Source: an uncultured virus (IMG/VR IMGVR_UViG_3300044451_000218) (lineage: Duplodnaviria; Heunggongvirae; Uroviricota; Caudoviricetes). Taken from it: a DNA stretch of 64,000 nt. Position numbers and translations under genes: made by a program. Of this stretch, positions 6,481 to 59,382 are shown one piece after another. The stretch lies in IMG/VR virus record IMGVR_UViG_3300044451_000218; one strand, written 5' to 3'. The notes beneath the pieces were generated by a model. The model searched no databases and was not told where the DNA came from. It saw nothing but the letters and a program-made list of their open reading frames with translations. Every line of letters starts with the position of its first letter. Position 1 is the stretch's first letter.

Positions 6481-7136
6481 ATGACTCTGAAGCAACTGCG
6501 GGCGCGTATTGCGGCCAAGAAAGCCGCCAAAGAGCCGCATAATCTCGCCGGCATCCGTAACGGCGGCGAGTTGTACATCAACGACCAGACGGGTAAAACC
6601 GTCTTCGGGCCGATGCACATGGAACGCGACTTCGCGAAAAAGTTCTGCGAAGAACTGGGGATTCCTTTTACCGAGGACTGAGATGAAGGTCTGGTTTACT
6701 AAAGAGGCCAACTCGGACAATCTGCACGAGGGCTTCTTGATCAGTGACGGCCCTCGGCGTTTGCGAGTCATCGCGATGGGCAGCGTCAATGACAGCATTG
6801 TCGTTCTCGATCCGCAAATCGAGTTCTTCAGCAGCATGATGGTGATCAAGGGGTTCGAGGAGGCGGGCGCACTCCTGAACGACAAGGACGTGTTCCATTT
6901 GGTCAGCGTCATGGCTTTGTACGAAAACCCCAAATAGGTGCAAAATGGACGAACTCATCAAGGCGGCAGACATCGTTACCACCGTTCTCTGGAACGAGAT
7001 GGAGCGAAACGAACTGTCGCCTGACAAGCCCACGCTGGAACGGGTCAATCGAATCGGACCAAACACGACCGAAATCGAGATCCGGTTCCCCGGCCGCAAG
7101 TTCAAGAAGTTCGTGCTGACTATTGACCCGCAATAG
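6481..7136 (+). other. Three small hypothetical ORFs (6481-6681, 6683-6937, 6945-7136)
   Basis: Tightly packed ORFs with phage-like codon use. Confidence 0.55.
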
Positions 7137-7143
7137 CCAACCC

Positions 7144-7214
7144 CCACCTTTGGGCCAGTGGCTGGCCAGCGATCTCTAAAATCGCGCACATCGGTTCGAT
7201 TCCGATAAGGTGGG
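7144..7214 (+). tRNA. Amber suppressor tRNA, anticodon CUA
   Basis: Acceptor CCACCTT/AAGGTGG, D arm GGCC-AGTGGCT-GGCC, anticodon arm GCGAT-CTCTAAA-ATCGC (CTA at 7176-7178), variable loop GCAC, T arm ATCGG-TTCGATT-CCGAT, discriminator G; no encoded CCA. Confidence 0.9.
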
Positions 7215-7280
7215 CTGAATCTAAAACAAAATTTGCATTGGTCAGAACGACAATCGGTTCGATCCCCACAAGGTGGGCTG
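7190..7280 (+). repeat. 28-bp imperfect direct repeat of the tRNA 3' end (7190-7217 and 7253-7280)
   Basis: ATCGGTTCGATTCCGATAAGGTGGGCTG vs ATCGGTTCGATCCCCACAAGGTGGGCTG, 25/28 identical, 35-nt spacer. Confidence 0.85.
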
Positions 7281-7293
7281 GAGGAAAACAAAA

Positions 7294-7851
7294 ATGAACG
7301 CTAATGATCTCGTCAACGTATTGTCCGGCACGACCACTCGCAGGGGCTTCCTCGCCGAGACAATGGGTGTTGTGACCGCTCCGTTCTTCGCCACTGACAA
7401 CCTGCTGGCGGATGTCCCTCTCGTTCAGGAACACATCGTCGCCCGCGCCGACCGCCCGAACGGGAACAAACGGATCTACCCGCTCTCCGTGCTGCAAAGA
7501 GTTGTCGCAGATTCGGCCGACGCGGTCGCGCACAGACAGATGATCGGTCAGTTGGGGATGCCCGCCGACAGCATCATCCACTTCAGTCAGGCGAGCCACA
7601 TTGTTAGGTCGCTCAAACTGAGTGACTTCGGCCCGCAGATCGGGTGGCAGTTGATCGCCGAAATCGAACTGCTCGCCACCCCCTGCGGCGTCATCCTGAA
7701 GAAGCTGTTGGCATCGCCCGGACAGGTGGCGTTCAGGACGGCCGGGGTGGGCCACGGCAAGATCAACGATGACGGCATTCTGGTGATTGACGATTCTTAC
7801 AAGCTGGTCGGCGTTCACGCTGTTCCGGCAAAAGACGCCGTGTGGATTTGA
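7294..7851 (+). CDS. T4 gp21-like prohead protease homologue, catalytic residues apparently substituted
   Basis: NGNKRIYP, MIGQLGMP (cf. GELxHP), ASHIV, LLATPCGVILKKLL, FRTAGVG (cf. VSSRGxG); N-terminal TRRGFL. Confidence 0.7.
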   Translation: MNANDLVNVLSGTTTRRGFLAETMGVVTAPFFATDNLLADVPLVQEHIVARADRPNGNKRIYPLSVLQRVVADSADAVAHRQMIGQLGMPADSIIHFSQASHIVRSLKLSDFGPQIGWQLIAEIELLATPCGVILKKLLASPGQVAFRTAGVGHGKINDDGILVIDDSYKLVGVHAVPAKDAVWI

Positions 7852-10088: not shown

Positions 10089-11037
10089 CAACGATCTCGA
10101 TGCCAAAAGCCGAGTGGCCAGAGAGGTTTTCGACCAACTGCCTCTCCGCAAGAAGGTCGAGTTTGTCCTGCTTTACGGGGAGTGGCAGTACCGCCCCGCA
10201 GAGTCAATCGCGGCCGAACTCGGCGTCACGGTGAAAGAGGTCCAGTGGATTCTGGGCGAGTTGGTGTTCGACGGTATTGCAGTGCTTCACTCTCACAGCG
10301 ATTCATACAGACACGTTGAGAGGACGAACGTGGAAATGAGCCGCGAAGAGAAGTCGCTCAAAGAAGCGATGTTGTGGGAGAAAGCTCGGCCAATCGATCC
10401 GAACACATTCCTGCCGATAGACGATCTTGCTTCGGGCGAATCCGTACTCGATACGGATCAAGATGAGATGTGTGAAACCGCAAACGCTGGATTCTCTATG
10501 TCAGCGAATCCACGACCGCAAAGACAAAAACATCGCCGACACATGAGGGACTTGGTCATGTTGACTGGATACCTGCCGGAAAACCTGATCGTCAAGGCGA
10601 TCACGGACGCCATGATGCACGCCCGCGAGGTGTCCGAGCGGGAACACATCAAGGCCGACCGCATCGAGCGTGTCAACCAGTTCATCGTCAGCCTGCGCCG
10701 TCAACTCGGCTACATGGACGACAAGTACCGTACCGAACGTGAGTACCTGTCCGCGAAGCTCACGAACAAGGAAGTCTGGTACGACATTGGCGTGTTGAAC
10801 CCGGAACGCATCTGGGGCATCCACGACATGCCGTACACCACCGTTCAGCGGTGGGTTCTCCAAGCTCAAGCCGGAATTTCTGTCACCGGCAACCTTCAGC
10901 AAGCCATTGATGGTAGCCTGATGAACCTGAAGGGTACGATCTTGGTGGCGCAGGGTTGCAACCTTGTCACCGACCAACTCAACAAGGACGCGGACAAGGT
11001 GGTTTCTGAAATGGCGGCAATCGCCGCCAATCTCTAA
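10066..11037 (+). CDS. hypothetical protein, possible N-terminal HTH
   Basis: AESIAAELGVTVKEVQWIL; start uncertain. Confidence 0.55.
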   Translation: MSASSECDNDLDAKSRVAREVFDQLPLRKKVEFVLLYGEWQYRPAESIAAELGVTVKEVQWILGELVFDGIAVLHSHSDSYRHVERTNVEMSREEKSLKEAMLWEKARPIDPNTFLPIDDLASGESVLDTDQDEMCETANAGFSMSANPRPQRQKHRRHMRDLVMLTGYLPENLIVKAITDAMMHAREVSEREHIKADRIERVNQFIVSLRRQLGYMDDKYRTEREYLSAKLTNKEVWYDIGVLNPERIWGIHDMPYTTVQRWVLQAQAGISVTGNLQQAIDGSLMNLKGTILVAQGCNLVTDQLNKDADKVVSEMAAIAANL

Positions 11038-16130: not shown

Positions 16131-16675
16131 CAAATGACTCTCGAAGAACTGAAAGAAATCGTGATCGAGAAGTTCAAGGCGTCTTTGATTCAACGCAATC
16201 AGTGGTCAAAGGTGATCATTGATTCCCCAGACGTTTTGCGAGCCGCCATTCTTCAAGAGGACGGGATGATTATCGCTTACGGCGACATCATCAAAACGAT
16301 TGACCCGGATTGGGAACTGGACCCCAATTTCAAAGCATACGAAGTACAAACAGGGTGAGGAAGTCATGACGCTTCAAGAGATCTATGCGATCATCTGGAA
16401 AGAAGGCGTGAATTCGCCTTCTTTGCCGCGAGGGTGGCTTCTTCCGCAAAACCTGAAACCGGCCCAGATCAACGAACATTTCCCGGTCGATGCTTTGGTC
16501 ATGGTTATGGCCGATTCTTACGGGGAACGCGATTTCGTTTACCCGAATCTGAGAAAGAGATCGTGGTGGTTCGGTCGTGTCGAGGCAGCAACAAGTGACA
16601 GGAACGTTCGTGTCAGAAGTACGTTTTCGGGAGCAGTTCGTTCGGTTCCGTACAATAAGATCAGGATTTACTAAC

Positions 16676-17113
16676 ATGACCGTCGTCTGCCAGAACCGCA
16701 AAGCCCGCTTCGATTATGAGGTTGTCGAAACCGTCGAAGCGGGTATTGTGCTGAAAGGCACGGAAATCAAATCCGTGCGAAACCACCGCGTTTCTCTCGA
16801 CGGAGCGTATGCCAGCGTGGACGCCGGAAACGTTACGCTAGTCGGCTGCAACATCGAGCCGTATTCGCACGGCAATGTTCACAATCACGAAGCCAAGCGT
16901 GACCGACGCCTGTTGCTCAACCGGAGCGAGATCGACAAGATCGCGAGCAAAGCGGCGGTGAGGGGGTTCACGTTGATCCCGCTGTCGATGTACATCAAGG
17001 ACGGTCGCGCCAAGATCGAACTGGCCGTCTGTCGCGGTCGGCAGACGCACGACAAGCGGCACGCCATCAAGGACCGCGAAGTGAAGAAGGCGATGAAACG
17101 GGGAAAATTCTGA
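16676..17113 (+). CDS. smpB: SsrA-binding protein SmpB
   Basis: NRKARFDY, EAGIVLKGTEIKSVR, RRLLLNRSEI, GFTLIPLSMY, HDKR. Confidence 0.95.
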   Translation: MTVVCQNRKARFDYEVVETVEAGIVLKGTEIKSVRNHRVSLDGAYASVDAGNVTLVGCNIEPYSHGNVHNHEAKRDRRLLLNRSEIDKIASKAAVRGFTLIPLSMYIKDGRAKIELAVCRGRQTHDKRHAIKDREVKKAMKRGKF

Positions 17114-18266: not shown

Positions 18267-18396
18267 GATTTTTGGTTGACAACGGTGCGAAACTGGCCTA
18301 CATTGATTTCATCAGGCCGCAGCACCACCCGTGGGCCGCAACCCCGGAGCGAGCCAAAATTCGCTCCGGGGCATTTAACTCAAACTGGATACTACG

Positions 18397-18777
18397 ATGA
18401 AGACTCAGATCACTGCCGAACACCTGTAGGTTTCTGAAGAGAACACTCCGTACTGTTACCTCTTCTTGCGGGAAGATCTTCCCCGCGTCTACAGTGCGGT
18501 CCAAGCGTGCCATGCCGCCATCGGCGGCGGGCAGTTCTTGATCCCCCAAAACATCCCACACCCGCACCTCGTTCTGCTCAGGGCTTCCTCCGAGCAGGAG
18601 CTTCGCAACATCGCGTCCCGTTTGGAACGCGACGGGGTACGTCATTACGTTTTCACCGAGCCAGACATCGGTAATCAAACTACTGCGTTGATTACCGAGC
18701 CGGTATATGGTGACAAGCGTCGAGCGTTCCGTCGTTATCGCTGTGTGAACGAACCGCCGAAATTAGATAGCGGATAA
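18397..18777 (+). CDS. Pth2-family peptidyl-tRNA hydrolase with in-frame TAG at codon 11 (18427-18429)
   Basis: MKTQITAEHL*VSEENTPYCYLFLREDL...AVQACHAA...LVLLRASSEQEL...FTEPDIGNQTTAL. Confidence 0.75.
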
Positions 18778-18778
18778 T

Positions 18779-18808
18779 TGTATGGAAACACATATGTGTT
18801 TCCATACA
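18779..18808. repeat. Perfect 30-bp palindrome
   Basis: TGTATGGAAACACATATGTGTTTCCATACA equals its own reverse complement. Confidence 0.9.
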
Positions 18809-18815
18809 TGGCGGC

Positions 18816-19295
18816 ATGGAAACAATCACTTGTATTCGATGCCGCCAATCCAAACCTCCAGAAGCTTTTCGTTTTAGAAACAAGTCTCTGGGGAAACGAG
18901 ACACGCGATGTCGCGAATGTTTTTGCGACTATCACAAGCTGGTTTACGACCGGCTAACACCAGAACAAAAACAACAAAAAACGAAGTCTTCAACCGACTG
19001 TCGGAGGCGACTTAGGGCGAAGCTACATGCGGTGGTGTGGAATTACCTGTCTACGCACCCATGTGTGGATTGCGGTGAAAACGACCCGGTCGTTCTGGAG
19101 TTCGATCACCGCGATCCTGAGCAAAAAGTAGAAACGATCTGCGGCTTGCTCAGAAATCTGGCTGACAACCACACGCTGCTGACTGAAATTGCAAAATGCG
19201 ACGTAAGGTGTGCCAATTGCCACCGACGCAAAACAGCAAAGCAATTTGGTTGGCACGCATTACGAGAGACTTATTATGAACACGAAAACGAATGA
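18816..19295 (+). CDS. HNH endonuclease (free-standing, zinc-binding)
   Basis: CIRC...CREC; PCVDCGENDPVVLEFDH...KCDVRCANCHRRKT. Confidence 0.88.
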   Translation: METITCIRCRQSKPPEAFRFRNKSLGKRDTRCRECFCDYHKLVYDRLTPEQKQQKTKSSTDCRRRLRAKLHAVVWNYLSTHPCVDCGENDPVVLEFDHRDPEQKVETICGLLRNLADNHTLLTEIAKCDVRCANCHRRKTAKQFGWHALRETYYEHENE

Positions 19296-19767
19296 AAAGG
19301 GTGCCTTCGAGGGTCGATTTGGTTGGCACCCGTGCGACCGGGAAACCTACCTCAAGCTGAAGCTGATCCACAAGGTCTTCTGGGAGTCGATCTTCCGGTC
19401 GGCCCAGTGGTATCGGTGGGACCGCAAGGAACCCCAGAACCGCGTACAGCGGTTCCATCGGGTCGAGGGCAAGCGGGAGAAGCTGTTTCCGCCGAAGCCG
19501 CTGCCCGAACCGAAGCTTCCGCCGTACCTGCTGAAGATCGAACACAAGAAGATCCACCGGACGTACACCGGGGACTACAAGCAGTGGATCGACCACGAGA
19601 AAGAAGTGGTCTGGTACACGCTGAAGATGAACCCGGACCTGTACGCGGCCGTCGCGGACTTCCAGAACGCGCGGACGCCGGTGATCGAAAGTCAGGTTCG
19701 GCCGCTGTCCTGCACGGCCGAAAAGATCGAAACCCTGTACCAGCAAGCCGTGGAGTGGCTTCGCTGA
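19276..19767 (+). CDS. hypothetical protein
   Basis: ORF with phage-like codon use. Confidence 0.65.
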   Translation: MNTKTNEKGAFEGRFGWHPCDRETYLKLKLIHKVFWESIFRSAQWYRWDRKEPQNRVQRFHRVEGKREKLFPPKPLPEPKLPPYLLKIEHKKIHRTYTGDYKQWIDHEKEVVWYTLKMNPDLYAAVADFQNARTPVIESQVRPLSCTAEKIETLYQQAVEWLR

Positions 19768-24758: not shown

Positions 24759-26342
24759 CTAGCCCTTTTTCCTTACCGCGAACCAGTCCCAGTCGTATTT
24801 GTTGAGGTAGCTACAAACGTGGCTCCCCAGTTCTTTTGAGTAGCTCTCTTTGCAGTCTTCCCAACCGGCCAGCCTCAACATGCTCGCCCACCACTCCATT
24901 GATCTTATGCAGAGGTGGGTCGGATCTTCGTTTTCATTCGCACGCTTCTGTCTGTCAAATGAGTTGGCCGTATCTAGTACCGCAAAGAAAGTAGCTCCAG
25001 ACCGACAGACGCGATTCAACTCTTTCAACACGAACGGAACCAGTTCCGGCCTCATGTGTTCGAGTACCTGTTGCGAGTGAACGCCTGCGAACTTTTGATC
25101 CTCGAACATGTGCATGTTAGCGCCGTCGCCAACGTAAAGTGGGATTTCGGGCCATTTCTCTCGGCCCAGTTTGACGGTGTATTCGTTCAGGTCGATTCCA
25201 GACGGTTTGCAGCCGTTTTCTTGAAGTCCCTTCGCAATCGCGCCGCACGCACAACCGAACTCAAGTACCTCTTTGCCTCTCCACTTCATGCAGTCGGCGA
25301 TCCATCGGCCGTACTCTCGCTGCCAATCTCCGTAGGCGGCATAATCACACCCCGCCTCTTTGTGCTGTTCGTAGTAGGCTCGGTCATACGCGGTGGACCT
25401 GAGCAGTTTGGACTGTTGCATCGGGTTGCCGCAGTACGGAGCCGTTTTCAGCTTCTCGACAACCGTTTCCAGCAGCGTTGATCTGAAGTCGGCGTAGCGG
25501 CGGTATTGGTACTTTCGCTCGAAGTATTCGATGCCGAACGGACGGTTCTTGGCCTTCATGAACTTGCCGGCGTCGGACGGGATCAGGTGCAGAACGTCGC
25601 TCAACTCGAAGAAGTGAATCGGGTGGTGCCTGACCCAAATGCCGATTGACGGCGTTTGAGTAGCGCCGGCGACGTGTAACGGCCCGCTGTCAACTCCGAT
25701 GAACAGTTTCGACTTCGAGATCAACGCGGCGATTGTCGCCATGCAGCCGGTGCTGGTGCCGCCCCACATCGGGTGAAGTTTGTCCGGGTTGAAGATGGTG
25801 CGTTGATCGGGGAGCGGGCTTCTCCGGTCCCAGTCGAGGATTACCGGCGTGTAGTCGTTCCGAACGAGGTGTCTGCACACTTCGCCGACATCATCGTGGT
25901 TGATGTTCTTCTTGTCCTGGCTGCTCGTACCCTGATAGTGGATCGTGACGATTCCCTTCGACGGCGGCAACGACTTCAGGTAATCGTCAACGAGACTGAG
26001 GTGTTGTCGTTCGGGGTCGATCTGATACCTGAACAGCGACTCGTCGGGAGCGATTTTGAACTCTTCCAGAAGAGATCTGGTGACTTTGCCGCTCGGCAGG
26101 TTTTCGTAGCACTGTTGCGGCTCGAACCATTTTGTCGATACGATCTGGTCGAACGTGAGTTTGGGTGGCCGCGAGCCGCGAACGAACGAGTTTTCGCAAA
26201 GTTGTCTGAGGCCGGTGTGTTTGCCAACGGGGATCTCCGTAAACACCTTCCAGTCGGGTCGGTATTTACGGAGGTGTTTGAGTACGATGGAGAACTGAGC
26301 GGTGTCGCCGAGGCCGTGGTTGTGGCTGATAAGTACGTTCAT
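24759..26342 (-). CDS. GT9 (heptosyltransferase-like) glycosyltransferase fused to a class I SAM methyltransferase
   Basis: HGLGD...LFIGVDSGPLHVAGA; VLEFGCACG...QVLEHM. Confidence 0.85.
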   Translation of the reverse strand: MNVLISHNHGLGDTAQFSIVLKHLRKYRPDWKVFTEIPVGKHTGLRQLCENSFVRGSRPPKLTFDQIVSTKWFEPQQCYENLPSGKVTRSLLEEFKIAPDESLFRYQIDPERQHLSLVDDYLKSLPPSKGIVTIHYQGTSSQDKKNINHDDVGEVCRHLVRNDYTPVILDWDRRSPLPDQRTIFNPDKLHPMWGGTSTGCMATIAALISKSKLFIGVDSGPLHVAGATQTPSIGIWVRHHPIHFFELSDVLHLIPSDAGKFMKAKNRPFGIEYFERKYQYRRYADFRSTLLETVVEKLKTAPYCGNPMQQSKLLRSTAYDRAYYEQHKEAGCDYAAYGDWQREYGRWIADCMKWRGKEVLEFGCACGAIAKGLQENGCKPSGIDLNEYTVKLGREKWPEIPLYVGDGANMHMFEDQKFAGVHSQQVLEHMRPELVPFVLKELNRVCRSGATFFAVLDTANSFDRQKRANENEDPTHLCIRSMEWWASMLRLAGWEDCKESYSKELGSHVCSYLNKYDWDWFAVRKKG

Positions 26343-38317: not shown

Positions 38318-38893
38318 ATGAAAACCTTCGCAGAGTGGCTCGCCGTGGAAGCTCGCGCACCCAAGAACGAGTTGTTGCAATACGCACCCAACAAGAAGTA
38401 TTTCACCATTTCTCCGCAATGGCACGACTTCTCTATTTGGTTTGAAAAGCAACCGCCGTCCGACGCCGAACTCAGGATGATGGCCGAAATCATCAGCGGT
38501 CACGGATTCCCGACCAGAGTTGCCAAGACGGGCGAGCAATGGCCCTACAGCGGTGACAGGCGGTACGACGATCTGGCTGACGAAATCCGTCACAAGTGGG
38601 ACGTTGCAGTTGATGACGCCGTCGAGGGCGTCCGAAAGTATCGCGCCGTTGTCGGCAGGAAGATCTCACACGGCACTCACCACGACGGCGGCGAGCGGAT
38701 GCCATTCTATAACGACCAGATCGCCACCATCGTACACAACCTGCGATACGTCAAAGACGACCCCGAAAAAGCCAAGAAGATGTTCGACGCAATGGACCGC
38801 AACACCAAGTTCATTCTCGTTCACGACGCCGGTATGTTCACCTCGGACGGCGCATTGACTCCAGTCGCATCACAGTACCTCCGAGGCTACTAA
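38318..38893 (+). CDS. hypothetical, possible virion-internal protein
   Basis: MKTFAEWLAVE start; TAAATA 5 nt upstream. Confidence 0.6.
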   Translation: MKTFAEWLAVEARAPKNELLQYAPNKKYFTISPQWHDFSIWFEKQPPSDAELRMMAEIISGHGFPTRVAKTGEQWPYSGDRRYDDLADEIRHKWDVAVDDAVEGVRKYRAVVGRKISHGTHHDGGERMPFYNDQIATIVHNLRYVKDDPEKAKKMFDAMDRNTKFILVHDAGMFTSDGALTPVASQYLRGY

Positions 38894-39849
38894 CTAAGAT
38901 GAGGGATTGCCTTCTCGCCCACCCACGCGAGAATCTTGGTATCACCACGCTCTACCGCCTCGATCCAGCGGTGTTTGCCTTCGATAACGACCACCGGCCC
39001 TTTCACTGTGTAGGTGGGGTGTTTGCTCAACACTTCGTTCGCTTCCACGATGATCGGCCCTAAGCTTTGGCTGCACGGCAGGTACTGCGGTCCTGTCGGT
39101 TTGAGTTTGGCGGTTTCCACTTCCATCAACTTGAACTTCTTGCTCACCACCAGATCAATCGGCACCGGGTCCAGCATTCCACGCACCTGATGCTCGTCAA
39201 CTTCGGCTGCGTACTGGAAGAAACCCCACGAAACGGCTTGTTTGAAGAAGTCCTTCATCTTCCCGAACATCACGAACTTCTGGTCGTCGTCCTCCACGAT
39301 TCCGTCTTTGGCCGCGAACGCGGTCATGGGATTCTTGTTTTCCGATTTTAGCAGCCGGCTCAGGTACGGGAAAACGGCGGGCGGCACCAGTGATCGCGCC
39401 GCTTCGTAGCCTTTGTTGATGCACACGTCTTTGACGGTACTGGATCGGATGTTCCTGATCTTGTCCGGGCCGAAGACGTAGTAGAAGTTGAGTTGCGGGC
39501 CGTGCGCCCGCATGTTCCGCTCGATGGCCTGCTCGTACACCAGATCGCGAGCATCGCGAACCCCACGAACGAGACAGATGTCGTTAAAATGAATGCCGCG
39601 TTCTGCGACCTGTTTCTTGCACCAGTCAACTGTCGTGGGGGTGTCAAGTATCTGGACGTAGGCTTTGGTGTGGGAGATTGATAGGGAGAGCATGTCCGCG
39701 CGTTCGCGGAGGGTGAAGGTGTAGTGCTTGGCGGGGTTGGGGCCAATGACCGCCTGAACCTCGTCGGCCATCTTGCAGGCTTGTTCGATGAGGTAAACGT
39801 GGCCGAGTTGTACGGGATCGTAACTGCCGGCGACGACAGCGATTTTCAT
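38890..39849 (-). CDS. coaD: Phosphopantetheine adenylyltransferase-like domain fused to a ParB/Srx-like domain
   Basis: AVVAGSYDPVQLGH, NPAKHYTFTLRER, LVRGVRDARDLVYE, IRSSTVK; C-terminal VVIEGKHRW. Confidence 0.75.
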   Translation of the reverse strand: MKIAVVAGSYDPVQLGHVYLIEQACKMADEVQAVIGPNPAKHYTFTLRERADMLSLSISHTKAYVQILDTPTTVDWCKKQVAERGIHFNDICLVRGVRDARDLVYEQAIERNMRAHGPQLNFYYVFGPDKIRNIRSSTVKDVCINKGYEAARSLVPPAVFPYLSRLLKSENKNPMTAFAAKDGIVEDDDQKFVMFGKMKDFFKQAVSWGFFQYAAEVDEHQVRGMLDPVPIDLVVSKKFKLMEVETAKLKPTGPQYLPCSQSLGPIIVEANEVLSKHPTYTVKGPVVVIEGKHRWIEAVERGDTKILAWVGEKAIPHLS

Positions 39850-57928: not shown

Positions 57929-58917
57929 ACGAAAAGAAACTGATACTCGTTCGGGTCGAACAGTACGTCAGCCCCGAATGGGGACAAGACCGCACCCAGT
58001 GGGTCAGGTACTTCTTGGCACCCGACCTCGAAACTGTCAAAAAGACCGTGTACGAGCGGTACGGCAAGCCACACTACTACAGCATGGACCGCGAAGAACT
58101 GAAATACAGCTTCAGCGAAGAACAGTTCGAGACACTCGACACGAGGATCGAAGACCGTGAGTGATATGAAAAACAAACTGCAAAAGGTCGTCTTCCTCAA
58201 AGACCACCGCTGTTTCAAAGCCGGCGAAGAGGTCGAGTTCGGCCCCGCCGTCAACCTGCTTGAAACCTGTCATGAGCGTATGTAGTATTACAAGACAAAG
58301 TTAAAAAAGGAGATAGCCGTGACCAAGTGGAAAGCGACGTGGCGGTGCGACCTAGAAGAAGAATTCTGCACCGACTTCCACGTCTACGAACTCGACACCC
58401 AGACACTCAGCGAAGCCGCACTGTTCATCGAACAGGACATCGGCTGTCGCGGCACCCTCATCAGCCTCGAACGCGAACTATGAACTACACGCGGCAATCG
58501 ATCCTCGAAGCCCTCAAACTCGCCGGCAAGCCCATCAACCGCGACAAGCTATTCAAAGAGTGGATCGAATACGCCGACATGGACCTCGTCCGCTTCAGCG
58601 AACAAGTGGTGACGGGCAGCGGCACGCTAATGGTCTTCAACGCCGCCGTCGTAGACCTCCTCAACAGTCATGAACCCCGCACAAGAAGTGTGTTTCAAAC
58701 TGATCGTCAAATTGACACGCGGCCTCGAAGCACAAGGGGTACTCGCCACTTATCCGTACCTAAGAGAACAATCGGGCAAACAAGCTCCAAGCACGATCCC
58801 GCACTTTGAACACTGCTTCCGGCAAGCACTCAAAGACGAACTGATCTTCGACATCAAGGGGTTGTATTCCACCAAGCGGCCCGGCGGCATCCGCGACCTC
58901 GATGACGGCTGGCAATC

Positions 58918-59382
58918 ATGACCGACAGTTACAACCCAAGCCCGACCGAAGGTTACATCTGTCGAAAGTGCCGTTGCACGCAAGGGTTCCTCTTGCCGTC
59001 CGGCATGACCGTAGTCTGCCTGAACTGTCCGTGGGAAGAAATGGTTCCAGCAATGATACCCACAGCACCAGCGAACTACCAAAAAGACGGAGTCCCCAAG
59101 CACTTCAACGACTTGAAGGACTACGAGTACCAACTGCTCGTACTCTTCAAGAAACTCCTCGAAAACGGCCCGCAAAGCCCCGACCAACTTTTCGAGTGGT
59201 CGAGCCGCCAGTATCGCTTTGAACACCCCGTCGCGAGCTATCGGTTTTAGGCCGCAGCCACCGACCCCGCAGTCAACCGCCTCTGCCTCCTTGCCTTCTT
59301 GCACCAAGAATATCTCGAAATGCACGACGGCAAGATCACCCTGCCCCAACCGCGAACGCTCGACGCGTCGTGGCGGGCCTAA
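58918..59382 (+). CDS. Zinc-finger hypothetical protein; TAG at 59248 with a 43-codon in-frame continuation
   Basis: CRKC...CLNC; frame open after TAG to TAA 59380-59382. Confidence 0.5.

Follow-up and report, generated by a model that had tools for sequence, protein, structure and literature searches.

We analysed 64,000 nt of the uncultured-virus record IMGVR_UViG_3300044451_000218 (the whole stretch is called the window below, and tests within the genome were confined to these 64 kb), in which a gene for a protein with the peptidyl-tRNA hydrolase fold PTH2 is interrupted, ten codons after its start, by an in-frame TAG. Many relatives of this gene in jumbo and huge phages carry an in-frame stop codon at the same place, and a tRNA whose anticodon matches that stop usually lies nearby on the same strand. 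The comparative data establish the anatomy of the interrupted gene, its conservation, its linkage to a suppressor tRNA, the covariation of stop and anticodon and the PTH2 fold of the product. On this basis we think it quite likely that the early stop is a programmed suppression gate, which makes synthesis of the PTH2-like protein depend on a suppressor tRNA that the phage itself encodes.

A conserved early stop in a PTH2-like gene

The leader of the window gene starts at ATG 18397-18399 and continues AAG ACT CAG ATC ACT GCC GAA CAC CTG, ten codons including the ATG (18397..18426, + strand; MKTQITAEHL). It runs into a TAG at 18427-18429 (+; next base G), after which GTT TCT GAA GAG AAC ACT CCG TAC TGT TAC opens a PTH2-fold domain of 115 codons (18430..18777, +; VSEENTPYCYLFLREDL...). 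Leader, TAG and domain form a single frame, which ends at TAA 18775-18777. The first ATG, GTG or TTG past the TAG is TTG 18466, within strand 1 of the fold model (residues 8-14). A sequence-only reading of the window, made before this analysis, had described the ATG, the ten codons, the TAG and the domain in frame behind it, the lack of any ATG, GTG or TTG between the TAG and the first strand, and a tRNA with anticodon CUA elsewhere in the genome, and all of these were borne out. Contigs of three sequencing runs (X1, X7 and X8) covered the TAG with no differences; X1 and X7 are possibly the source sample, and X8 is a different sample represented by one 151-nt contig at depth 3. The contig of a further run, X9, spans only 18702-18900, without the gate.

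The identity of the downstream domain was examined by Pfam, a fold model, Foldseek and a profile search against the PDB. A search of 1.84 billion representatives with the family profile returned 1365 members at E <= 0.001 and 399 at E <= 1e-10, and relatives within the same alignable family passed the cut-off of Pfam PTH2 (PF01981), among them P0072 (31.5 bits) and ORF364 of phage XacN1 (25.3 bits). An AlphaFold model of the window domain, built from a family alignment of 63 sequences, had a predicted local distance difference test score (pLDDT) of 94 and a predicted template-modelling score (pTM) of 0.85. When this model was compared with the PDB by Foldseek, the 13 best listed chains (ranks 1-14) all had the PTH2 fold, with probability 1.00 and template-modelling (TM) scores of 0.51-0.72; ten of them are named Pth2 or Bit1 or come from entries so named, and the others include the unnamed Atu0240 and TA0108. 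The family profile likewise found solved Pth2 chains in the PDB, the best being a peptidyl-tRNA hydrolase at E 1.7e-5. The motif vRxDL...VQxxHA is common to the phage family and the solved Pth2 enzymes; in the phage family R14, Q25, H28 and E77 are invariant, and D79 and T85 nearly so. The modelled protein has the PTH2 alpha/beta fold, and we refer to it as PTH2-like. All matches in the phage collection were to phages of 181-735 kb, save one record of 85.7 kb, and the window is jumbo- or huge-phage DNA; no close DNA relative of it was found in that collection. Phages of Xanthomonas and Stenotrophomonas, and some relatives from metagenomes, have the domain as the C-terminal part of a protein of ~280 aa, as in XacN1 ORF364 (L004 973-1812), P0131 and P0133. 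The N-terminal part of P0133 matches the Pfam HD domain (E 6.4e-6); no HD match was found in the similar N-terminal extensions of P0131 and XacN1 ORF364.

We read 27 distinct family loci at the DNA level (29 with the duplicates L041 = L036 and L038 = L035). An ATG leader of 2-10 codons followed by an in-frame stop 3-7 codons before strand 1 was present in 16 of the 27, the stop sitting at codon 3-11; the window TAG thus has a stop at the same position in 15 other loci. The alignment of homologous loci proposed by the sequence-only reading, as a check for a conserved early stop co-occurring with suppressor tRNAs, therefore gave a positive answer, and a stronger one than the reading had called for, with a matching suppressor tRNA near 14 of the 16 gated genes. 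Seven of the gated loci belong to cultured phages: ME3, RsoM2USA, CBB, GAP32, fHe-Yen9-04, the Salmonella phage Arash and Serratia BF. The others are the window, L002, the uncultured huge phages LR756511.1, LR756500.1 and LR756501.1, and the IMG/VR contigs L034, L040, L042 and L033. These four IMG/VR loci came from a search with the back-translated core motif, which was blind to the N-terminus and returned 11 loci. A search of viral contigs with the single protein gave one distant locus (L001), the same search with the alignment gave none, and the homologue search found no family loci among genome contigs. Protein identity to the window falls to about 28% among the gated loci.

The closest DNA relative of the window locus, L002, is a contig from a metagenome and encodes a protein with ~70% identity. 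The gene there begins ATG ACC ACG CAA CTA ACC GCC GAA CAT ACC TAG GTA TCT AAA, so its leader, MTTQLTAEHT, matches that of the window at 7/10 residues. Synonymous and other sites differ between the two, and MxTQ[IL]TAEHx-TAG-VS is kept, a pattern which suggests that the leader is under selection. In LR756511.1 (41% identical) the gene begins ATG ACT CAC TAG GTT GAA ACC CCG TAT. The codon past the stop varies among GTT, GTA and, counted from the called start of P0001, GTG, as expected of a translated Val codon. The conservation of an in-frame stop with conserved coding sequence on both sides, the mark of programmed readthrough, was seen both between the window and L002 and across the 16 loci. 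The base past the stop was a purine in 16/16 gates, which represent only ~10 independent lineages, and a Shine-Dalgarno (SD)-like motif precedes the leader ATG in 12/16 gated genes. In the window this motif is a weak GGA (18387..18389, +), 7 nt before ATG 18397; L002 has GGAG at the same place.

The 11 ungated loci comprise N-terminal fusions (XacN1, Xoo-sp13, RAS14 and Hallingskeid), RaK2, L001, L032, L037, L036, L039 and L035. RaK2 has a TAG followed by its own ATG three codons later. In a maximum-likelihood tree gated rows fell on both halves, with ~6 changes of state, at least 2 of which are forced by well-supported branches. A second in-frame TAG is present in L007, L034 and L040, at one common place in the loop before the HPHLV strand; such a second stop would tie output to roughly the square of suppression efficiency. 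For 67 of 155 family representatives the called gene starts in or after strand 1, the error to be expected of gene callers at a hidden stop. The gene is unannotated in the records of RsoM2USA, fHe-Yen9-04 and BF and is cut short or split in those of CBB, GAP32, ME3 and Arash (in the last as two fragments, gp85c and gp84c), and if the gate holds, the annotation of at least seven cultured phage records would be corrected on this point.

Suppressor tRNAs near the gated genes

The window encodes an amber suppressor tRNA with anticodon CUA in the loop CU-CUA-AA (7144..7215, +), which was called by ARAGORN and matched the Rfam tRNA family RF00005 with 53.9 bits (E 1.1e-10; cut-off 29). Its predicted cloverleaf folds at -29.7 kcal/mol (z -3.0). 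A run of Rfam in gathering mode over the whole window gave no match; the fast filters lost the tRNA, which was found in E-value mode on 6800-7600. The T-arm and 3' acceptor end are repeated ~45 nt downstream of this tRNA with the last 11 bases identical, and the segment 7216-7280 looks like a partial duplicate of its 3' half.

In 14 of the 16 gated loci a suppressor tRNA matching the stop lay at 0.25-13 kb from the gene and on its strand. The distance between gene and tRNA was 0.25 kb in L033, 0.43 kb in ME3 (tRNA-CUA upstream of the gene), 0.8 kb in LR756500.1, 1.0 kb in Arash, 1.6 kb in L040 and 2.1 kb in LR756501.1, which has two copies. It was about 3 kb in GAP32, L034 and fHe-Yen9-04, 3.3 kb in Serratia BF, 3.7 kb in CBB, 8 kb in LR756511.1, 11 kb in the window and 13 kb in RsoM2USA. 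The two remaining loci lie on cut contigs: that of L002 is 1.4 kb long, and that of L042 is cut 450 bp upstream of the gene. The suppressor of several genomes stands beside the gated gene, away from the main tRNA arrays. This is clearest in LR756501.1, where arrays occupy 168-232 and 358-368 kb and the only two tRNA-CUA genes lie at 690.6 kb, more than 300 kb from the arrays and next to the gated gene at 688.2 kb. The ME3 genome has only 4 Rfam tRNA matches in all.

The stop codon and the anticodon also change together. L033 has the sole TGA gate of the set (SD, ATG AAG TGA GTT...), and the tRNA 252 bp upstream of it is a tRNA-UCA; this match is the strongest single datum for the link between gates and suppressor tRNAs. 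Atu_ph07 was absent among the matches to the L033 protein, which gave no second TGA case. Loss runs in parallel too. RaK2 and Hallingskeid form an ungated clade (support 100/99) nested in a gated clade, and no suppressor was found among their 8 and 7 ARAGORN tRNAs; the stretches searched took in every one of the 9 Rfam tRNA matches that each genome has. The loop CU-CUA-AA is common to 17 of 20 tRNA-CUA. Both this loop and a purine after the stop are favourable for amber suppression.

Three further tRNA observations were made along the way. The tRNA at 7304-7378 of the Arash record L075 is labelled Phe; ARAGORN and the loop CT-CTA-AA indicate the anticodon CUA. In RAS14 (OP752703.1), ARAGORN assigned the anticodon UUA, of the ochre-suppressor type, to a tRNA at 302428-302502, which is present besides a tRNA-CUA. 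Odd tRNA-like genes with two-base anticodons were called by ARAGORN in L035/L038 (~10140-10213), beside a GC-rich ungated homologue.

The proposed gate and its alternatives

In the gate that we propose, ribosomes would initiate at ATG 18397 and reach the UAG after ten codons, where the phage tRNA-CUA (7144-7215) would compete with host release factor RF1 to decode it; only then would they pass into the domain. A start further downstream would cost the domain its strand 1, and for this reason only suppression should yield the domain. If passage requires the tRNA, the amount of PTH2-like protein would follow suppressor activity in time and in level, and since the gate lies at the far 5' end, a failed passage would cost only a peptide of 2-10 residues. 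The tRNA and the gated gene would then be the two parts of a conserved module, carried by jumbo and huge phages whose code is otherwise standard. This supports the proposal of the sequence-only reading that Pth2 is made only upon readthrough of the stop, on comparative grounds, namely the conserved stop and its co-occurrence with suppressors. The findings that might have told against that proposal went the other way as well: homologues retain the stop, the assemblies agree and no common start codon follows the stop.

The residue inserted at the UAG is probably Gln. Among the ungated N-termini, 27 of 58 have Q at residues 2-6, compared with 23% expected (p 7e-5), and this Q is mostly followed by V or I, the same residues as follow the gate. 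Pairs of ungated and gated N-termini suggest a direct replacement (MGFTQV vs MGFS-TAG-V, MTHQI vs MTH-TAG-V, MTQ vs MT-TAG), and CAG and TAG are one transition apart. The LR756511.1 suppressor is closest to the same phage's tRNA-Gln(CUG), at 77%. In a comparison of suppressors with their nearest paralogues no consistent nearest tRNA emerged across phages, and for this reason we keep the Gln identity as a probable assignment.

The main alternative on the level of the genetic code is that TAG is reassigned throughout these genomes, in a manner like code 15, and that the gate TAG is one sense codon of many. The suppressor tRNA itself and the second in-frame TAG in the same gene of L007, L034 and L040 would fit this explanation, and recoding is known in huge phages (PMC13037316; 10.1101/2021.08.26.457843). 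Of the features of recoded phages, a phage-encoded matching suppressor tRNA was indeed present in the window and in 13 other gated genomes or contigs. Two more window frames on the + strand would also fit, 58166-58480 (TAG 58283) and 58918-59379 (TAG 59248), which are protein-like on both sides of an in-frame TAG. Pfam and PHROG assigned neither frame to a family and tblastn found no phage match for either, and they may be further suppressor targets or chance. They are also the only candidates, unverified, for the remark of the sequence-only reading that other genes here are broken, which we could not confirm. For 16 stretches, the window and 15 related ones, we measured the frame open in open reading frames (ORFs) of >=150 codons. 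With TAG read as sense this measure rose by 0.00-0.39 (<=0.15 in 13), less than with TGA as sense in 16/16 and less than with TAA as sense in 14/16; in the window the gain was about equal to that from TAA, and in L033 the same measure gave no sign of recoding for TGA read as sense. Window genes such as the methyltransferase (24762-26342) and the cytidylyltransferase (38893-39849) end at TAG. Stops with coding signal on both sides numbered 12/589 for TAG, 26/2051 for TGA and 9/481 for TAA in the window, which is a weak control only, because the codon model could not separate sense from antisense in DNA of 56% GC.

Whole-genome scans of two cultured carriers pointed the same way. With frames open for >=70 codons on both sides and no start in the next 12 codons, ME3 had 0 TAG, 1 TGA and 1 TAA, and CBB had 2 TAG, 5 TGA and 11 TAA. 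A scan for short leaders gave 6 TAG, 2 TGA and 4 TAA in ME3 and 12 TAG, 14 TGA and 27 TAA in CBB, and by eye most of the other short-leader matches have an ordinary Met start ~9-25 codons past the stop. The PTH2-like gene was the only clear interrupted gene within reach of these scans, which are crude. Neither a low standard-code density rescued by reading a stop as sense nor, as far as the crude scans reach, stops in many genes were found; the open-frame gains, the coding-signal counts and the genes ended by TAG give no sign of reassignment, annotation of the cultured carriers follows the standard code, and ME3 and CBB have no TAG excess over their whole genomes. Moreover, an ordinary Gln-TAG should swap freely with CAA and CAG at ~30-40% protein identity, yet the TAG is kept at one place. 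We regard genome-wide reassignment as very improbable.

Re-initiation would dispense with the suppressor altogether. The leader mini-ORF would end normally and ribosomes would restart on a non-canonical codon such as ATT or GTT, as in a coupling or minigene-type regulator. Leaders of 2-3 codons resemble minigenes, and the lambda bar minigenes are Pth-sensitive. Six of the 16 gates are directly followed by ATT, a rare known start codon, and re-initiation is possible there; at the other 10 the next codon is GTT, GTA, AAT or AAC, none of them a start codon, and in the window, L002 and L040 no canonical or near-cognate start occurs in the 10 codons past the stop. Re-initiation also leaves unexplained the TGA/tRNA-UCA pair of L033, the suppressor linkage, the fact that RaK2 and Hallingskeid have neither gate nor suppressor, the second TAG in three relatives and the Q in ungated members, and we consider it improbable. 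Readthrough might instead occur without the phage tRNA, by host near-cognate tRNAs or at low RF1 (the sequence-only reading had worded this as RF1 limiting), so that the gene would sense the termination capacity of the host. The purine past every gate would also favour leaky termination. On the other side, the type of stop tracks the anticodon of the neighbouring tRNA, every gated genome that could be assessed (14/14) encodes the matching suppressor, and the ungated RaK2/Hallingskeid clade is without one, which makes this explanation highly unlikely. There is next to no chance that the gene is dead or the stop an artefact, whether by nonsense mutation, pseudogene formation or assembly error. 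A plain nonsense mutation was the sequence-only reading's own caveat, and the window protein does fall just under the Pfam cut-off; set against this, 16 loci are laid out alike, seven of them in cultured phages, conservation extends through the leader before the stop and the domain after it, the contigs of three runs agree without differences and the fold model reaches pLDDT 94. The comparative sequence data refute such an origin, barring a systematic error common to independent assemblies.

Apart from the ATT codons, the two window frames, the weak codon-model control and the crudeness of the scans, several observations weigh against the suppression gate as we propose it. Readthrough itself we infer from comparative evidence. 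Independence among the 16 gated loci is limited to ~10 lineages, with near-copies in CBB, GAP32, BF and fHe-Yen9-04. No tRNA-CUA was seen in the 10 kb downstream of the L042 gene, on the contig that is cut 450 bp upstream of it. Suppressors also accompany ungated or fused members, in distant arrays in Xoo-sp13 and RAS14 and nearby in L037, L036 and L039, and XacN1, whose family member is fused, carries a suppressor tRNA according to the XacN1 paper. A gate therefore implies a suppressor and a suppressor does not imply a gate; the association is not simply that of gate and key, and the tRNA must have some role beyond the gated gene. The sequence-only reading's label of Pth2 was stronger than the sequence match warrants, since the window protein scored 20.6 bits (E 5e-4) against PF01981, below the cut-off of 23, and the PTH2 assignment holds through the fold. 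The two-residue GK loop of the solved Pth2 enzymes is missing from the phage family. Because of the sub-threshold score and the missing loop, hydrolase activity of the PTH2-like protein is putative and unproven.

As to what a suppression gate would be for, our preferred purpose is that it would adjust the supply of an aminoacyl- or peptidyl-tRNA ester hydrolase to suppression, in its load or its level. In a feed-forward arrangement, more suppression would send more ribosomes past stops and strand more peptidyl-tRNA, and more hydrolase would be made as ribosome and tRNA housekeeping. In a negative-feedback arrangement, the enzyme would discharge the suppressor and cap readthrough. The SmpB gene of the window and the transfer-messenger RNA (tmRNA) of LR756500.1 fit the feed-forward theme. 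The ungated members near suppressors, the HD fusion in P0133 and the glutamyl-tRNA amidotransferase gene of Xoo-sp13 point to chemistry at the tRNA 3' end, and they decide neither way between the two arrangements. The prfB-like feedback proposed by the sequence-only reading is plausible, and both it and a sensing of RF1 are conjecture. A more specific form of the negative feedback is that the PTH2-like enzyme strips the amino acid or peptide from tRNA-CUA (or tRNA-UCA), a self-limiting homeostat that would hold readthrough at a set level. We think this possible, though rather unlikely. It fits the ungated L036, L039 and L037, which lie beside suppressor tRNAs, and again the HD fusion in P0133. 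If true, a tRNA and an enzyme would together do what prfB does by autoregulation, in phages that still end their other genes at TAG, and this might be an intermediate stage that lets standard-code phages live with a suppressor on the way to complete reassignment.

Genomic surroundings and known systems

Upstream of the leader lies a sigma-70-like promoter, TTGACA-17-TACATT (18276..18304, +), with 10/12 matches; 2 such sites were found vs 0.4 expected, and the assignment is a consensus match only. A TTGACA...TATATT pair was read by eye at the corresponding upstream place in L002. The 11-bp hairpin that the sequence-only reading had placed before the gene exists (18342..18371, +) as an exact inverted repeat with an 8-nt loop, which folds as a 12-pair stem, and the 146-nt 5' untranslated region (UTR) of the window gene has a folding z of -2.8. 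No counterpart was found in the UTR of L002 (z +0.84), and because of this lack of conservation we do not count the hairpin as part of the device. Another hairpin, perfect over 12 bp and with a 4-nt loop and no T-run after it, was read from the sequence; it starts 3 bases past the stop codon (18780..18807, +) and is possibly a 3' end or stability element; L002 likewise has an inverted repeat just past its stop.

The PTH2-like gene is followed by an HNH endonuclease gene (18816..19295, +; PHROG phrog_2255, E 3.9e-30) and then by a conserved partner gene (19276..19767, +; GRFGWHPC...RWDRKEPQNR). In L002 the homologue of the partner (623-1150) stands directly 3' of the PTH2-like gene with no HNH gene between them, and in P0023, P0058 and P0072 the partner domain is fused to the PTH2-like domain. 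From this arrangement the HNH gene looks like a homing-endonuclease insertion into a conserved gene pair. The partner motif across the family is GWHPC...RW.RK.PQNR; no Pfam family and no Atlas match >=0.9 was found for the window partner protein. About 1.3 kb upstream of the gated gene lies an SmpB gene (16577-17113; Pfam 183 bits), and HNH genes are encoded in the window. The tmRNA of the related huge phage LR756500.1 lies at L024 14611-15021, so that genes for ribosome rescue accompany the suppressor module, and the glutamyl-tRNA amidotransferase gene of Xoo-sp13 is two genes upstream of its PTH2-like gene.

These results would provide the first target identified for jumbo-phage suppressor tRNAs, a specific and testable one, namely one conserved gene whose stop matches the neighbouring anticodon, and since several of the carriers are cultured on ordinary laboratory hosts, the gate idea can be tested directly. 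If it is true, the tRNA and its gene would be a natural, dedicated suppressor-target pair acting as a genetic gate, a design built independently in synthetic biology. It would also link stop suppression to a PTH2-like enzyme, near SmpB or tmRNA genes in some phages, which suggests that phages manage the cost of readthrough, and it would show, in minimal form, a state from which changes of a phage's genetic code may set out.

Among the closest known systems is prfB, the gene for release factor RF2, which is autoregulated through an early in-frame UGA and a +1 frameshift; its own product reads the stop and thereby closes the loop. Here too an early stop (codon 3-11) would make a translation termination or quality-control factor, judged by the PTH2 fold, depend on how the stop is handled, and its placement keeps aborted products tiny; unlike in prfB, the frame is unchanged, with no +1 frameshift, and the reader would be a tRNA acting in trans. 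ArfA under tmRNA-SmpB is likewise a rescue factor made only in a given state of another surveillance pathway, and SmpB is among the genes of the window. The mechanism of ArfA is a non-stop mRNA with tagging of the product, whereas suppression of an in-frame stop is proposed here. Viral readthrough, as in Q-beta A1 and retroviral gag-pol, shares an in-frame stop with functional sequence downstream in frame; it relies on host tRNAs at low efficiency and gives a C-terminally extended minor product, whereas here the whole domain lies past the stop and the virus would supply the tRNA. In synthetic suppressor-tRNA logic gates an amber codon in the target and a separately controlled tRNA provide stringent AND-type control. 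Those gates are engineered, and the window system would be their natural, conserved counterpart. As an enzyme family, Pth2/Bit1 (PF01981; PDB 3erj, 2zv3, 1wn2, 1q7s, 1xty) has the same fold and shares the N-terminal vRxDL...VQxxHA, and the phage proteins differ from it as a divergent clade with a shorter loop without GK, their own invariant set and frequent fusion to an HD or an uncharacterised C-terminal domain.

The published work on phages comes near the device from several sides. Iyer et al. (PMC7824862) note PTH2 in jumbo phages, with no link there to amber codons or suppressors. Papers on jumbo phages report amber or opal suppressor tRNAs in standard-code genomes. The XacN1 paper describes an in-silico readthrough of 18 amber stops that identified no target, and those on RsoM2USA and Atu_ph07 (the latter reporting an opal suppressor tRNA) point only to the abundance of the stop codon and propose several genes as potential targets, with no specific one. 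In recoded phages (Borges et al., 10.1101/2021.08.26.457843; PMC13037316), a phage suppressor tRNA decodes in-frame stops, as proposed here, and it is proposed there that tRNA availability gates late and lytic gene expression; the word 'hydrolase' was not found in the text of Borges et al. In those phages stops occur in many genes and the standard-code density collapses, whereas here a single small gene of the translation apparatus, not a lysis or structural gene, has a fixed 5' stop under the standard code. In a full-text literature search that covered few subscription journals and no supplements, neither a PTH2-like gene interrupted by an amber codon nor a specific target of jumbo-phage suppressors was found described, in agreement with the sequence-only reading, which had not recognised the arrangement as described. 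The device is real, conserved and apparently undescribed. Its kind is known, both from suppression-gated phage genes and from early-stop autoregulation; what is new is a single dedicated target in standard-code phages, with stop and anticodon covarying.

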